From the NCBI GenBank assembly GCA_946409645.1, contig CAMJXE010000005.1, positions 6,631 to 70,630 of the forward strand: DNA of 64,000 nt. The letters run 5' to 3'. Both the position numbers and the translations under genes were made by a program. This document shows positions 9,386 to 37,327 of the stretch, in pieces. Within the stretch, counting starts at the first letter, position 1; each line of letters starts with the position of its first letter. The notes under the pieces are model-generated. The model searched no databases. It was not told where the DNA came from and saw only the letters and a list, made by a program, of their open reading frames with translations. This DNA comes from an uncultured Bacteroidales bacterium (lineage in GTDB: Bacteria; Bacteroidota; Bacteroidia; Bacteroidales; WCHB1-69).

Positions 9386-9415
9386 TGTAGAGACGCGCCA
9401 TGGCACGTCTCTACA
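9386..9415. repeat. REP-A copy 2 (canonical)
   Basis: tgtagagacgcgccatggcacgtctctaca, between the pta stop and the lolE-like start. Confidence 0.9.
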
Positions 9416-10573: not shown

Positions 10574-11494
10574 TTATTCTCGCACAATTTTCCCACCGCC
10601 ATGAACGGTGACCTTCCCGAGTTCGGACTTGTCGGTAAGATAAGCGGTACCTGTTACAGTGGCGATGATGTAGCCGACACTGGCGTGCGTGATGTGTGCA
10701 GTTGTGACTTTCAGAAGTTGCGTGTTAACCGTGCCGGCACCTGTGTTTTCCAGCGTCATCTCTTCCGCCTTGCCGTTCATTAGCATCATATCACCCGGGC
10801 CTTGGTTCCGCAGCTCTATCCTTTTTGCCGTGATATTTTGCATTTTAATGTCCCCCGCGCCTCTATTCTGAAGAATCAGTTCTTCGGTAGGGATGCTCAT
10901 CAGGTTCACCGAAACATCACCTGGCCCTATATTGTTGACAACCAGTGAACCACTGGCGGAACTGGCCATGACTTTCACATCGCCAGCGCCCGAGTTGTTG
11001 ATGAGCAAAGTCTCTTGTCTGATGGCATCGGAGGCGGGGACGATGATGTCGCCTGGACCTTTGCTGTGTAATTCCAACGTTTTTTCAATCTTCAGACATT
11101 GGAGGGTGCAGTCGCCCGCGCCCTTGTTGATGACCGTCAGGTGCGGTTCGTTCCGCTTTTCCATCGTCACGTCACCGGGACCAGACAGGGACAACTCTTC
11201 CAAATGAGGCAAACGTATTTCTATTCGGATATCTGTTTTCCTTTGGGGCGCCTTTTTGTCCATATAAATGGATAGTTTCCCGTCTTTTACATCCGCATGG
11301 GTGTGCTCTATGAAGCTGTAATCGCTTGCCTTGATGATAACCTCATGGTTCGTGGTGCTTTGCTTTATGACCACGTCACCTATAAAGTGTATGTACACCG
11401 TGGTGAAGGGTTCCATATCTGAAATGATACGGGACTGTGCGAACAACCCGCTGATTGATAATAAGATTGCAATGGTTAATGTTGACTTTTTCAT
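10574..11494 (-). CDS. Secreted DUF2807/LiaG-like putative adhesin-head (beta-helix) protein
   Basis: Signal peptide MKKSTLTIAILLSISGLFAQ and a periodic G(P/A)GD(V/I) motif repeated about 8 times. Confidence 0.7.
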   Translation of the reverse strand: MKKSTLTIAILLSISGLFAQSRIISDMEPFTTVYIHFIGDVVIKQSTTNHEVIIKASDYSFIEHTHADVKDGKLSIYMDKKAPQRKTDIRIEIRLPHLEELSLSGPGDVTMEKRNEPHLTVINKGAGDCTLQCLKIEKTLELHSKGPGDIIVPASDAIRQETLLINNSGAGDVKVMASSASGSLVVNNIGPGDVSVNLMSIPTEELILQNRGAGDIKMQNITAKRIELRNQGPGDMMLMNGKAEEMTLENTGAGTVNTQLLKVTTAHITHASVGYIIATVTGTAYLTDKSELGKVTVHGGGKIVRE

Positions 11495-11530
11495 TGTATT
11501 TGGATTATTTTATGACGTGAGACGTAAGAC

Positions 11531-12913
11531 TTAAGACTTTGGGATGAGGTCGGACTTTTTCTGGGTCACCGGCACCACCTCCTTGCCGGCAGTGTCGATG
11601 AAGCCGTAGAAGTTTCCTTTACGCACGAGGGCACAGCCGTCGAGGTAGATTCCGAACTTGCCGATGTCGTCGTATTGCGGATGTACGACCTCCTTGCCGG
11701 CGCTATCCACAAACCCCTTGAACCCGAATATCTCCACCATTGCCCAACCGGTCCGGTATTCGTCAAACGGCCGTATGTCCGTGTATTTCGGATATACCAC
11801 GATGTTTCCGTTTTCGTCTTGGAAACCGTAGTAGCCGTTGCGCTCGAACTTCCTCAGGCTATGGTGAGGAGGTAGAGACGCGCCGTGGCACGTCTCTACT
11901 ACGTCGGATGCGGACGTTTCGGGCAATGGTGAAACAGATGATTCGGTTCCTTTTACTTGCTGTTCAGGATATGGGGGTTCCTGTAGAGACGTGCCATGGC
12001 GCGTCTCTACAACGGCGGTATCGGCATTAACGATCGTGGAATCGGTTGCAACACACGTGGTTACCACTGTCTCCAGCGGGGTCTGGCCTGTGGGTGTGGG
12101 TGCGGGTTGCGCCTGCCATGCAATGACGGAGCCGGTCACGACCGTGGCGACCACACCCGTGGCGATGGCGGGGGCTTTCGCAGCGGTGACGGCCATCCAG
12201 ACGCTAGGCTTGGGCGCGGCGGTCCAATTGACGGCGGAAAAGGGCGACGGCGTGGCAGGCGACAACGCCAGATGTTTCAGCTTCGCACGGCAAAGACGGT
12301 CGATGGCGTGCGTTTTCCAGGGGAGAAAGGGAAGCAGTATCATAAGTCCAGATTTTTTGTGGCGGACAAGGTTGTTCAAGGCGATTTGCAGCTGCATCCG
12401 CGCTTCCGCCAGATAGCGTTTTGAGCTGCGCACCCCGATTTGCAACACCTCCGCGATTTTCGCATGAGATTGGTTTTCAAAAACATGCAGGTTGAAAACG
12501 GTCCGTTGTTTGTCGGGCAGGGCGCAGATGGCATCGAGGATTTCGGATTCGGTGAGGTCGGATTCGGAGATACAAGTTTCATCAGGTTCGTCCTGTAGAG
12601 ACGTGCCATGGCACGTCTCTACAACGTCGGATGCGGACGCGATAAATCGCGTCCCCACGGTATCGTCATCCATCGACAGAAATTGCGGTTGTCGCCGCAG
12701 GTAATCCATCGTGGTGTTGAGGTTGATGCGCATCAGCCAGCCGTCGAAACTGCCGAGGCGGCGGTAGCTTCCGGACTTCTCGATGGCCTTGAGGAACGCC
12801 TCGTGCGCGAGGTCTTCGGCCACCGCGCGGTCGCCCACATAGCGGCAGCACATCCCGACCATCTTCGCGATGTTCCGCTGGTACGCCTTCGTCCAAAACT
12901 GCTTCGCCTGCAT
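11531..12913 (-). CDS. ECF-type sigma-70 factor fused to a TM segment and C-terminal WG repeats; contains three in-frame REP-A insertions
   Basis: Sigma region 2 (AEDLAHEAFLKAIE..FDGWLMRINLNTTMDYLRR), region 4 (LPDKQRTVFNLHVFENQSHAKIAEVLQIGVRSSKRYL), a hydrophobic helix (APAIATGVVATVVTGSVIAW), and WG repeats (YGFQDENGNIVV.., YGFIDTAGKEVVP). Confidence 0.7.
   Translation of the reverse strand: MQAKQFWTKAYQRNIAKMVGMCCRYVGDRAVAEDLAHEAFLKAIEKSGSYRRLGSFDGWLMRINLNTTMDYLRRQPQFLSMDDDTVGTRFIASASDVVETCHGTSLQDEPDETCISESDLTESEILDAICALPDKQRTVFNLHVFENQSHAKIAEVLQIGVRSSKRYLAEARMQLQIALNNLVRHKKSGLMILLPFLPWKTHAIDRLCRAKLKHLALSPATPSPFSAVNWTAAPKPSVWMAVTAAKAPAIATGVVATVVTGSVIAWQAQPAPTPTGQTPLETVVTTCVATDSTIVNADTAVVETRHGTSLQEPPYPEQQVKGTESSVSPLPETSASDVVETCHGASLPPHHSLRKFERNGYYGFQDENGNIVVYPKYTDIRPFDEYRTGWAMVEIFGFKGFVDSAGKEVVHPQYDDIGKFGIYLDGCALVRKGNFYGFIDTAGKEVVPVTQKKSDLIPKS
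11872..11899. repeat. REP-A copy 3, inside the sigma-fusion CDS
   Basis: gtagagacgcgccgtggcacgtctctac; translated as VVETCHGASLP. Confidence 0.9.
11982..12011. repeat. REP-A copy 4, inside the sigma-fusion CDS
   Basis: tgtagagacgtgccatggcgcgtctctaca; translated as VVETRHGTSLQ. Confidence 0.9.
12594..12623. repeat. REP-A copy 5, inside the sigma-fusion CDS (region 2/region 4 linker)
   Basis: tgtagagacgtgccatggcacgtctctaca; translated as VVETCHGTSLQ. Confidence 0.9.
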
Positions 12914-12938
12914 TTTTCGCTATTTTACAATGATGACG

Positions 12939-12946
12939 CAAAAGTA
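12939..12946 (-). promoter_or_regulatory. -7 box TACTTTTG for the sigma-fusion gene
   Basis: The plus strand reads caaaagta, 26 nt upstream of ATG 12913. Confidence 0.55.
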
Positions 12947-12974
12947 CGAAAAAGGGCCAATATCAGCTGTTAGC

Positions 12975-13003
12975 TGTAGAGACGTGCCATGGCGCGTCTC
13001 TGT
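12975..13003. repeat. REP-A copy 6, in the divergent promoter region, with its stem extended by a flanking 11-bp inverted repeat
   Basis: tgtagagacgtgccatggcgcgtctctgtca, flanked by agctgttagct / agctaacagct. Confidence 0.85.
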
Positions 13004-13031
13004 CAATAGCTAACAGCTAATAGCCAATAGC
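13004..13031. repeat. Imperfect heptanucleotide array (4 units)
   Basis: caatagc taacagc taatagc caatagc. Confidence 0.7.
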
Positions 13032-13042
13032 CGTTTTTTTTG

Positions 13043-13050
13043 TACTTTTG
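13043..13050 (+). promoter_or_regulatory. -7 box TACTTTTG for polA
   Basis: tgTACTTTTGcc, 25 nt upstream of ATG 13075. It overlaps the TTG at which the ORF track starts. Confidence 0.6.
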
Positions 13051-13074
13051 CCCTCCCTAAAAAACCCAAAGGCA

Positions 13075-15753
13075 ATGACGAAAAAAATCCTCCTGATAGA
13101 TGCTATGGGCTTGATTTTCAGAGCGTACTACGCGATGATCAAGAGTCCGCGATTCACCACCAAGGGGTTGAACACCTCCGCGATGCTCGGCTTTACCAAC
13201 TCGCTGTACGAGGTGCTCAAGAACGAGAAACCCACCCACGTGGCGGTGGCCTTCGACACCGGCGCGCCCACCTTCCGGCACGTCGAATACGAACACTACA
13301 AGGAGAATCGCGAGGCCACGCCCGACGACATCGTAATATCCATCCCTTACATCAAACGCATCCTCGACGCCTTCCAGATCACGATGGTCGGCATCGACGG
13401 CTACGAAGCGGATGACCTGGTCGGTTCGTTGGCAAAACACGCTGAAATCGAAGGATTTGAGGTGCTGATGCTCACCTCCGACAAGGACTACGGTCAGCTC
13501 GTCTCCGAGCACATCAAGATGTATAAACCCGGAAAGTTCGGTCAGCCGGCGGAAATCCTCGGCGTGGCAGAGATTTGCGAGAAGTACAAAATAGAACGTC
13601 CTGAGCAACTGATTGATATGCTCGGGCTTTGGGGTGACTCGTCCGATAACATCCCAGGCGTGCCCGGCATCGGACAGGTGCGCGCCCAAAAGTTGCTTGC
13701 CAACTACGGTAGCATAGAGGAGATGTATGCGCGCAACTTCGATAAGGATAACGACAAAACCCGCGCCCTGATGAATGAGTATAAAGAACAGGCTTTTCTC
13801 TCTAAAGAGTTGGCTACCATCATGATAGATATCCAGATGGAGTACGACTTCGACCAGATGGCCTACAACGGTCCTGACCCCACGAAACTCAAAGCCATCT
13901 TCGACGAACTGGAGTTCAAAGCCCTCACCAAACGCATCTTCACCGATTTGTCGCTGCAAGTACCTCAGCCACAGGCCGCCCCCGACCTCTTTTCCCCTAT
14001 CGAAGAGACGGAATCACAGGCACCGATGGAAGTCGAAGCACCAAAAACCGTCTTCGTGCTTCCACAAACTGTTGAGGTACAATCCATTAAAGATATTCCA
14101 GAAAAAAAGAATGACACAGTCTTCTTTACATGGATTTTCCAACAAGAACGTATCGCTGGTTTCGCCTTTGCTATGGACGAAACGAAAACTTTTTATCATT
14201 GGGTAGAAAGTGAACATCGTCACTATCAAGAGTTTATAAAGCTGATTTTCGGGGAGCCGCGCACTGTGGTGATGCACGACTGCAAAAATACGTACAAGTA
14301 TCTGAAGTCGTTCCGGGTGGAGCCGAAATGCACCTTCTGGGACGTGCAAATCGCCCATTACCTGCTGCAACCCGAGCGCAAGCATCAGTTAGTCGACCTC
14401 TGTCTAAGTTATTTCGATAGCGAGCTAACCGAAGCGAACAAACCGTCGCCCGCGCCCGAAAACGAGCAGTTGCTATTGTTGCAAAAGCTTTATCCGATTT
14501 TAGATAAAGAATTGAAAGATAATAATTTAACGGATTTGTTTTCCCAAATGGAGATGCCTTTGGTACCAGTGCTCGCTGACATGGAATATACTGGCGTGAA
14601 AGTCGATGTAGGAACTTTGCAGCAAAATTCTGATACTATGAACGCGGAAATTGCCGCTATCGAACAACAAATCTACGAATATGCAGGTGAAACGTTCAAT
14701 ATCGGGTCGCCGAAGCAGTTAGGGGAGATTCTTTTCGAGAAAATGGCATTGGTCAAAAACGCCCGTCTGACCAAAAGCAAGCAGTATCAAACGGGCGAGG
14801 AGGTGCTCAAGAAGATGGCCTACAAGCATCCCATCGTGTCGCTGATTTTAGAGTGGCGCAAGCTCTCGAAGCTGAAATCCACCTACATCGACGCATTGCC
14901 GCAGTTGATCAACCCGAAGACGGGTCGCATCCATTCCACTTTCACTCAGACGATTACGGCCACGGGTCGTCTCAGTTCCCTGAATCCGAATCTGCAGAAT
15001 ATCCCTGTGCGTACCGAGCGCGGGCGCGACATCCGCAAGGCGTTCGTGCCTTCTGAAGGCAATGTGTTGATGGCCGCCGACTACTCCCAGATCGAGTTGC
15101 GCATCGTGGCACATGTCTGTCAGGATGAGCGCATGATTGAAACATTCCGGCAAAACGAAGACATCCACGCTACAATGGCCGCGCACATCTACGGTGTTGA
15201 AAAAGAGGAAGTTACTGCAGATATGCGCCGTGCTGCCAAAACCGTCAACTTCGGCATTTTGTACGGCATTTCCGCCTTCGGACTCGCCGATAGGCTGCAG
15301 ATTCCGCAATCGGAGGCCAAACAGCTCATCATGGACTACTTCAAAAGTTTCCCGAAAATATCCGATTATCTGAACGACACGTTGGAATTCGCCCGCGAGC
15401 ACGGATATGTGGAGACGCTGATGGGCCGCCGCCGCAACATCCGCGACATCAACGCCAAGAACGGCATTCTCCGCGCCGCTGCCGAACGCAACGCCATCAA
15501 CGCACCCATTCAGGGCACTGCTGCCGATCTCATCAAAATCGCCATGATTCGCATCCACGAGGAGATGACGAAACGGAATATGCGCAGCAAAATGATTCTG
15601 CAAGTACACGATGAATTGGTGTTCGACACTTGTCCCGACGAGTTGGAAGTGCTGACGGAGCTCGTGCGCGAGCGCATGTCGGGTGCTATGCAACTCTCTG
15701 TGCCTTTGGATGTTAACATCAACAGTGGCCAAAACTGGTTCGAGGCGCACTAA
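13075..15753 (+). CDS. polA: DNA polymerase I
   Basis: 5' nuclease N-terminus, then family-A polymerase motifs A (DYSQIELR), B (RRAAKTVNFGILYG) and C (QVHDEL). Confidence 0.95.
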   Translation: MTKKILLIDAMGLIFRAYYAMIKSPRFTTKGLNTSAMLGFTNSLYEVLKNEKPTHVAVAFDTGAPTFRHVEYEHYKENREATPDDIVISIPYIKRILDAFQITMVGIDGYEADDLVGSLAKHAEIEGFEVLMLTSDKDYGQLVSEHIKMYKPGKFGQPAEILGVAEICEKYKIERPEQLIDMLGLWGDSSDNIPGVPGIGQVRAQKLLANYGSIEEMYARNFDKDNDKTRALMNEYKEQAFLSKELATIMIDIQMEYDFDQMAYNGPDPTKLKAIFDELEFKALTKRIFTDLSLQVPQPQAAPDLFSPIEETESQAPMEVEAPKTVFVLPQTVEVQSIKDIPEKKNDTVFFTWIFQQERIAGFAFAMDETKTFYHWVESEHRHYQEFIKLIFGEPRTVVMHDCKNTYKYLKSFRVEPKCTFWDVQIAHYLLQPERKHQLVDLCLSYFDSELTEANKPSPAPENEQLLLLQKLYPILDKELKDNNLTDLFSQMEMPLVPVLADMEYTGVKVDVGTLQQNSDTMNAEIAAIEQQIYEYAGETFNIGSPKQLGEILFEKMALVKNARLTKSKQYQTGEEVLKKMAYKHPIVSLILEWRKLSKLKSTYIDALPQLINPKTGRIHSTFTQTITATGRLSSLNPNLQNIPVRTERGRDIRKAFVPSEGNVLMAADYSQIELRIVAHVCQDERMIETFRQNEDIHATMAAHIYGVEKEEVTADMRRAAKTVNFGILYGISAFGLADRLQIPQSEAKQLIMDYFKSFPKISDYLNDTLEFAREHGYVETLMGRRRNIRDINAKNGILRAAAERNAINAPIQGTAADLIKIAMIRIHEEMTKRNMRSKMILQVHDELVFDTCPDELEVLTELVRERMSGAMQLSVPLDVNINSGQNWFEAH

Positions 15754-37297: not shown

Positions 37298-37327
37298 TGT
37301 AGAGACGCGCCATGGCACGTCTCTACA
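37298..37327. repeat. REP-A copy 7 (canonical), in the predicted 5' UTR of tolC
   Basis: tgtagagacgcgccatggcacgtctctaca. Confidence 0.9.

Follow-up and report, generated by a model that had tools for sequence, protein, structure and literature searches.

Several described systems resemble the subject of this study, a sigma factor gene that carries in-frame repetitive extragenic palindromes (REPs) and lies in a 64,000-nt stretch of DNA (hereafter, the window) from an uncultured rumen Bacteroidales bacterium, whose own genome (G000) comprises 3.09 Mb in 147 contigs and is 96% complete. REPs of the double-foot type (5′ GT[AG]G, 3′ C[TC]AC) have been tied to subclass 2.4 of the TnpA-REP proteins, or REP-associated tyrosine transposases (RAYTs), of Cyanobacteria and Bacteroidetes (Quentin et al. 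2018, BMC Genomics 19:475, PMC6006769), and supplementary file 2 of that study gives the exact 28-mer GTAGAGACGCACGGCCGTGCGTCTCTAC as a subclass 2.4 REP, in a record coded ‘CaggA01’ that is outside the Bacteroidales. In-frame intragenic REPs are also already published, both as the palindromic elements of Rickettsia and in the work of Di Nocera, De Gregorio and Rocco (2013, BMC Genomics 14:522, PMC3733652), which describes GTAG/CGTC REPs inside open reading frames (ORFs) with the frame kept, sometimes at least two per gene, whose 10–30 added residues were read as tolerated insertions in modular proteins and were linked to the Rickettsia elements. Finally, extracytoplasmic function (ECF) sigma factors with fused C-terminal regulatory extensions form 19 groups, with transmembrane (TM) helices in ECF263, as set out by Casas-Pastor et al. 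(2021, NAR 49:986, PMC7826278).

Comparison of the window with these systems revealed that its REPs, like those of Quentin and colleagues, are 28-bp hairpins with GTAG and CTAC feet that can be inserted in frame in genes, there in tnpA-REP genes and here in an ECF sigma gene. The listed 28-mer, whose core is CACGGCCGTG, is present in two orthologues of the sigma gene (L004 and L009; loci in relatives are given L-codes, genomes G-codes, and the window allele is denoted WIN) as well as in related genomes, and the family is therefore one that had already been catalogued. The earlier REPs have a cognate transposase, whereas examination of G000 and of 11 Y1 loci from relatives revealed no Y1 gene that is of the subclass 2.4 type or flanked by REPs. 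The elements are thus REPs by their short stable palindrome, double feet and many dispersed copies, and differ from that class in that no REP-flanked RAYT gene (a REPtron) was found. Rickettsia palindromic elements (RPEs) are ~100–150 bp long, whereas the REPs described here are 28–30 bp, have an unrelated sequence and occur in a different phylum, so that the likeness is one of behavior only.

A preliminary description of this stretch had reported that a 460-codon ORF stays open through three REP copies read in the same frame, one of them in the linker that joins sigma regions 2 and 4 and the other two after the TM segment but ahead of the WG repeats, and our analyses bore this out. The repeat unit is 28 bp, GTAGAGACG-N10-CGTCTCTAC, and the palindrome GTAGAGACGYGCCATGGCRCGTCTCTAC had six matches in the window versus none in 100 shuffles. 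Copy A (12595..12622, minus strand) encodes VETCHGTSL (aa 98–106; VVETCHGTSLQ in context) in the sigma2–sigma4 linker and is a perfect 28-bp palindrome that extends to 30 bp with its T/A flanks. The other two in-frame palindrome matches are in the post-TM linker, copy B (11983..12010, minus strand) encoding VETRHGTSL (aa 302–310; VVETRHGTSLQ in context) and copy C (11872..11899, minus strand) encoding VETCHGASL (aa 339–347; VVETCHGASLP in context). All three read GTA-GAG-ACG..., copies A and C have 16 nt of left flank in common, and the REP-coded segments of the sigma protein include VVETCHGTSLQDEPDETCISE. A further copy with one degenerate foot (12976..13003) is located in the intergenic region between the sigma gene and the divergent polA, 90 nt ahead of the sigma start codon; the preliminary description had found this copy, and had missed a fourth, decayed in-frame copy, TGGGGACGCGATTTATCGCGTCCGCA (12632..12657, minus strand), an 11-bp stem palindrome that encodes VGTRFIAS in the sigma2–sigma4 linker and at whose site the REP is intact in relatives L009 and L011. 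At the mean REP density of G000, 0.047 copies would be expected in 1.5 kb versus the four observed (Poisson P = 1.9e-7, or ~4e-4 when corrected for all windows).

The REP copies lie in frame in a gene that is under purifying selection, within linkers that are near-neutral and predicted to be disordered; they are conserved as nucleotide sequence and turn over by insertion, deletion and exchange of their cores. The explanation we favor, and regard as probable, is that the sigma gene is functional and that its linker REPs are near-neutral passengers, kept palindromic by the dynamics of the REP family and not by selection specific to this gene. A 28-bp double-foot GTAG REP would have colonized two intrinsically disordered linkers of the sigma protein. 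Its orientation would be irrelevant because the REP is its own reverse complement, and since one of the three frames contains TAG whereas two are open (reading V-E-T-x-x-x-x-S-L and R-D-x-x-x-x-V-S-T), copies in tolerant segments would survive as ten extra residues. Such passengers would have little effect on the protein, and their perfect palindromes would be upheld by homogenization across the whole family rather than by a function in the sigma gene; candidate homogenizers include HUH/RAYT-type activity on the pair of GTAG feet, short-patch conversion in which the 9-nt arms act as primers, and hairpin-templated repair.

The first part of that explanation concerns the status of the sigma gene (11531..12913, minus strand), whose 460-aa product is laid out as sigma2, an acidic linker, sigma4, a conserved juxtamembrane segment, a TM segment, a disordered linker and WG repeats. 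Its N-terminal 180 residues match the ECF superfamily model TIGR02937 (59.8 bits versus a cut-off of 42.9, NCBIfam), with sigma-70 region 2 at aa 11–75 (12689..12883, minus strand; PF04542, Sigma70_r2, E = 3.7e-12) and region 4 at aa 124–175 (12389..12544, minus strand; PF08281, Sigma70_r4_2, E = 4e-12) as the only sigma regions, joined by the linker, as is typical of ECF membership. The C-terminal extension beyond sigma4 is 275 aa long, well over the 50 aa of extended ECF sigma factors, and its juxtamembrane, TM and WG portions are conserved in 74 aligned homologues. A single TM helix is predicted at aa 247–266 (12116..12175, minus strand; Kyte-Doolittle peak 1.77 at aa 247–265), in a strongly conserved segment with invariant T252, G253, V255, A256, T257, V259, T260 and G261. 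The WG (KWG-type) beta-repeat domain, presumed to be extracytoplasmic (11564..11848, minus strand; PF14903, E = 9.1e-18), matches WG_beta_rep in two stretches from aa 362 (64 bits versus a cut-off of 25.6, Pfam). From this arrangement the protein is likely a cytoplasmic ECF sigma factor that its own TM helix tethers to the membrane, the periplasmic WG domain serving as sensor, and release of the sigma factor by regulated proteolysis is plausible given the topology and the conserved Gly/Thr-rich TM segment.

The preliminary description had presented this architecture as unusual. The complete ECF/TM/WG fusion that it recognized stands, and the fusion is native to the gene family, but it is less unusual than was stated: because 19 ECF groups with fused C-terminal extensions, including membrane-spanning ones, have been described (PMC7826278), the sigma–TM–WG protein is a variant of a known design and not a new one. 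Like those extended ECF sigma factors, it has a sigma2 and sigma4 core, an extension of >50 aa and no adjacent anti-sigma gene, whereas the extensions named in the available part of that paper include none in which one TM helix precedes WG repeats. Separate sigma and WG genes in the orthologues, an arrangement that the preliminary description had also considered, were not what we found: nearly all of the best 120 listed homologues (70–89% identity, 404–489 aa, from rumen and gut Bacteroidales metagenome-assembled genomes (MAGs)) have both the sigma and the WG Pfam domains fused.

High levels of constraint were evident in the domains of the protein when ratios of nonsynonymous to synonymous substitution rates (dN/dS) were computed per region between the sigma gene and ten orthologues. 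Values were 0.03–0.17 for sigma2, 0.01–0.23 for sigma4, 0.07–0.30 for the juxtamembrane/TM region and 0.13–0.50 for the WG domain, versus mostly 0.8–0.9 for the post-TM linker in comparisons with close relatives; the sigma2–sigma4 linker gave 0.2–0.3 versus the closest relatives and >1 versus some distant orthologues. An AlphaFold2 (AF2) model built with 74 homologues (mean predicted local distance difference test score (pLDDT) 51, predicted template modeling score 0.30), of low confidence overall and used solely for its pattern of order and disorder, resolved the sigma helices, including those of region 2, and the WG beta domain (pLDDT 70–91, with the WG strands at aa 354–451 at 80–91), and did not build the predicted TM segment as a helix. 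Its pLDDT fell below 50 at residues 64–117 and 187–352, and all the REP peptides are contained in those two segments. Large and variable insertions are tolerated both in the sigma2–sigma4 linker and in the periplasmic tether of this transmembrane ECF sigma factor made of one polypeptide, and tolerance of the in-frame REP insertions had been one of the possibilities raised in the preliminary description.

Together, the open ORF, the Pfam and NCBIfam matches, the same architecture in >100 orthologues and the dN/dS values indicate that the sigma gene is functional and that its domains are under strong purifying selection. It is scarcely credible, therefore, that we are dealing with a fusion pseudogene in decay or that its in-frame copies are artefacts of metagenome assembly, although two loci give that idea its footing. 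In L036, from a close relative with a 96% identical polA, homology to the sigma gene (95% at the nucleotide level) stops at the last base of copy A (L036:2792–2819), and in one MAG two contigs, L012 and L035, each hold part of the sigma gene, the latter starting at aa 95, the site and first codon of copy A. Since the breaks in L036 and in L012/L035 both fall at copy A, REPs evidently break or mis-join assemblies, or genomes, and metagenome assemblies can be split or mis-joined precisely at REP ends; the L036 breakpoint itself reflects either a rearrangement mediated by the REP, which left the gene truncated after 107 codons (at codon 107), or a chimera in which the MAG contig was joined at the repeat. 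Against decay or artefact as a general explanation, the frame is open at the DNA level here and in our set of 34 orthologous loci, so that the gene is intact in >30 independent MAG assemblies from different studies; the domains are those under strong selection; and the conserved partner gene is present downstream. The latter, which encodes a DUF2807 (GIN-domain) secreted protein (10574..11494, minus strand; PF10988, E = 2e-26), starts 37 nt past the sigma gene and is kept in nearly all orthologous loci. The unrelated sequence past the L036 breakpoint opens with TATTGCC/TGTTACC heptamers, which are similar to heptamers near the upstream REP of the window. That upstream REP is preceded by four tandem heptamers of the RGCTRTT type (GGCTATT GGCTATT AGCTGTT AGCTATT) and is enclosed by an 11-nt outer inverted repeat, AGCTGTTAGCT / AGCTAACAGCT (window 13004–13032 and 12955–12975).

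Across the 120 listed homologues, REP peptides proved to be close to universal. At least one intact REP decapeptide was identified in 112, with 0 to 5 per protein, and 246 of the total of 253 decapeptides map to three linker segments. All 253 are in the V-E-T frame and none in the R-D frame. The codons of these peptides, which were defined for this purpose from the protein level only, are nearly fixed to those of the palindrome (GTA 95%, GAG 98%, ACG 95%, TCT 88% and CTA 95%), whereas the same codons stand at 16, 47, 30, 13 and 4%, respectively, elsewhere in the same genes. The palindrome is therefore conserved at the nucleotide level and not as a peptide.

This codon pattern bears directly on the suggestion, also made in the preliminary description, that the decapeptides have been exapted as selected linker modules that set length, charge or protease sensitivity. 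The confinement of the copies to the two linkers, the exclusive use of the V-E-T frame (253 versus 0) and the tandem duplication, in some orthologues, of 42-nt units composed of a REP and an acidic tail would all suit such a role. Selection on a peptide does not predict that synonymous codons would be frozen to the GTA-GAG-ACG...TCT-CTA of the palindrome (88–98%) when those codons are minor elsewhere in the same genes, nor would it be expected to leave the core residues free, and these are wholly different among variants (CHGA, FHET, QNFA, QCIA, RRAA and HGRA). In addition, the linker dN/dS is ~0.85, and linkers of similar length are found in REP-free orthologues and paralogues. We consequently give exaptation of the peptide very little credence.

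A possibility with more behind it, though still an unlikely one in our judgment, is co-option of the hairpins in cis, where they would adjust sigma factor expression via the stability of the mRNA, pausing of translation ahead of the TM segment and periplasmic domain, or promoter architecture, a role that would be the reason the clade keeps perfect palindromes. The occupancy of 112 of 120 homologues is consistent with this, as is the REP density within the gene in the 34 orthologous loci (0.96/kb), which is 4.5 times that in 158 kb of their flanks (0.22/kb) and compares with 0.03/kb genome-wide. So is nucleotide conservation while the peptide varies freely, together with REP arms that are unchanged between orthologues with dS >1. 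A REP is also present upstream in the distant orthologues L031, L032 and L034, at −91 to −113, so that WIN and these loci all have one 90–113 nt before the start codon, and the REP hairpins form strong RNA stems of 12–15 bp (−20 to −24 kcal/mol, z −4.3 to −5.5, versus −19 kcal/mol and z −2.4 for the decayed copy). Nevertheless, all REP copies in G000 keep the same perfect arms wherever they are placed, and since they do, selection specific to this gene is not needed. The gene is intact with no intact REP in 8 of the 120 orthologues and in L006, L008, L029 and L030, and the copies vary in position as well as in number (0 to 5 per protein). No U-tract was found at the REP hairpins, which the preliminary description had suggested could attenuate expression, and an intrinsic-terminator scan called none of them, nor was there an Rfam match at E ≤ 1 across positions 11000–13400. 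It is the near-universal high occupancy and the recurrent upstream copy that lead us to keep a role in cis at the weight given.

Some observations also weigh against the passenger explanation that we favor. Occupancy of the gene is far above background and near-universal in the clade, and tolerance alone does not explain paralogues that have similar linkers and no REPs: the five membrane-tethered sigma paralogues of ~357 aa that we examined (L037–L041) have acidic linkers that are equally long, in which inspection revealed no REP peptide. The use of one frame by all 253 peptides means that either frame selection or maintenance in place is needed. Moreover, no REP-flanked RAYT gene was found in G000, in whose assembly, at 96% completeness, such a gene could be missing.

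The possibility that the linkers are themselves made wholly of decayed REPs was considered and rejected. A scan for arm-like 9-mers returned the four known copies and one match at chance level (8 arm matches versus 3.8 ± 1.9 in shuffles), and as a general claim such an origin is at odds with the equally long acidic linkers of the REP-free paralogues.

A different paralogue does contain REPs. The divergent upstream neighbor in L007 (L007:1140–2171, minus strand) is a paralogous 343-aa membrane-tethered ECF sigma factor with two in-frame REPs, VETFPETSL and VETRHGTSL, which are 93 nt apart and in the V-E-T frame of its post-TM tail. REP pairs occur at approximately −1000 to −1300 in about ten other orthologous loci (L002, L003, L005, L009–L011, L015, L019 and L025), which suggests that these pairs mark the same paralogue; in the window, polA takes that position.

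The orthologous loci together represent >100 natural alleles in which a double-foot REP can be seen to have been gained, lost, half deleted, duplicated or given a new core in place. At site A the empty allele of L006 differs by a clean 36-nt gap, with a 4-nt GACG direct repeat around the insert, whereas site C shows no clean insertion but an additional 24 nt with the neighboring sequence altered. In some orthologues copies have been half-deleted via ATGAAAC microhomology, and in some the 42-nt unit has been duplicated in tandem, as noted above. Sister genomes have a different core, TTTCATGAAA, at the identical site C junction. Comparison of WIN with L002 at site C revealed 12 differences in 120 flanking positions, none in the 18 arm positions and 6 in the 10 of the core (Fisher p = 5e-4). 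For L007 versus L009, the L2a site showed 16 differences in 120 flanking positions, 1 in 18 arm positions and 6 in 10 core positions (p = 0.002). Each of the four cores compared is self-complementary, with no more than two mismatched pairs. Because these close relatives share flanks and arms yet differ in a self-complementary core, the 10-nt cores appear to have been swapped in place, and a single insertion followed by in-place change of the core is the more parsimonious account since the alleles share derived flanks that empty alleles do not have. The available text of Di Nocera et al. (2013) contains no mention of core variants at one fixed orthologous site or of near-universal occupancy of a gene family.

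Possibly, these swaps reflect a more general process in which REPs are rewritten in place at fixed intragenic landing pads, the 9-nt arms and junctions staying while cores are exchanged among discrete subfamilies (TGCCATGGCG, TTTCATGAAA, CAAAATTTTG, CACGGCCGTG and others). We advance this only tentatively, and hold it to be doubtful in its general form. If true, it would point to cassette exchange by an HUH enzyme cutting at both feet, or to arm-primed conversion, and would explain how perfect hairpins in one frame persist across lineages with saturated synonymous sites. In a stronger form, the clade may keep the hairpins for control of sigma expression. The main value of the sigma gene lies in its being a large natural series with REP core swapping at fixed intragenic sites, one that is usable as a data set on REP movement and palindrome upkeep.

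A count in G000 that allowed at most one mismatch per arm identified 96 dispersed copies, and genome-wide alignment of these gave a unit of ~30 bp, T-GTAGAGACG-N10-CGTCTCTAC-A. The GTAG...CTAC feet are present in the three genic copies and in the listed genome copies. The cores fall into subfamilies, of which CGCCATGGCA has ~30 copies, CGATTAATCG 10 and TTGCGCGCAA 8, with CAAAATTTTG, TTTCATGAAA and others also represented, and self-complementarity, allowing for one mismatched pair at most, was seen in 77 of the 96. In a survey of 31 related genomes with an exact-arm pattern, 25 contained the REP (0–237 copies per genome), among them members of several other families of the order, whereas a reversed control pattern had no matches. 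Flanks in G000 are unconserved past a T at −1 and T/C at −2, and no general rule for the insertion target could be derived from them; a literature search for the REP arm sequences returned chance primer matches only. Two further canonical copies are in the window, at 9387–9414, just beyond the pta stop codon, and at 37299–37326.

The sole PF01797 (Y1_Tnp) gene of G000 (C2:44902–45207, locus L047) has a 1-nt frameshift relative to the intact orthologues of relatives (L056–L058), which falls between WQEG and YGAFSYS, before the presumed catalytic Tyr motif RYIENQ. No REP was found within ~1.5 kb of it, and of the 11 Y1 loci examined in relatives none is REP-flanked, the only one with a REP being L052, at a distance of 1.5 kb. 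G011 (98% complete) is the only genome of the genus without a PF01797 match and the only one with zero REPs, in what is a small sample, and in G020, which belongs to another family, 8 REPs occur without any PF01797 match.

In-frame intragenic REPs are a common habit of the G000 genome. Of the 96 copies, 28 are located inside ORFs that start with ATG and are ≥150 aa long, with both of the open frames used, and 68 are outside; a few of the ORFs look spurious. Pfam-confirmed host genes include those for AcrB (two copies, one in each open frame), EPSP synthase and HlyD, with further Pfam support for a peptidase with a type IX secretion system (T9SS) sorting domain, a THUMP-like protein and a molybdopterin oxidoreductase-like protein, and ORFs of 1737 and 1973 aa are also among the hosts. 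For annotation, odd repeated VETxxxxSL or RDxxxxVST peptides in Bacteroidales are translated REPs, and not domains or signs of a pseudogene. In two different T9SS cargo proteins of G000 (C11:13405 and C46:16569), a REP decapeptide occupies the same loop of the C-terminal sorting domain, in the context ...DVYGK.V..VETxxxxSL...INVSxLxAGMYFVR....

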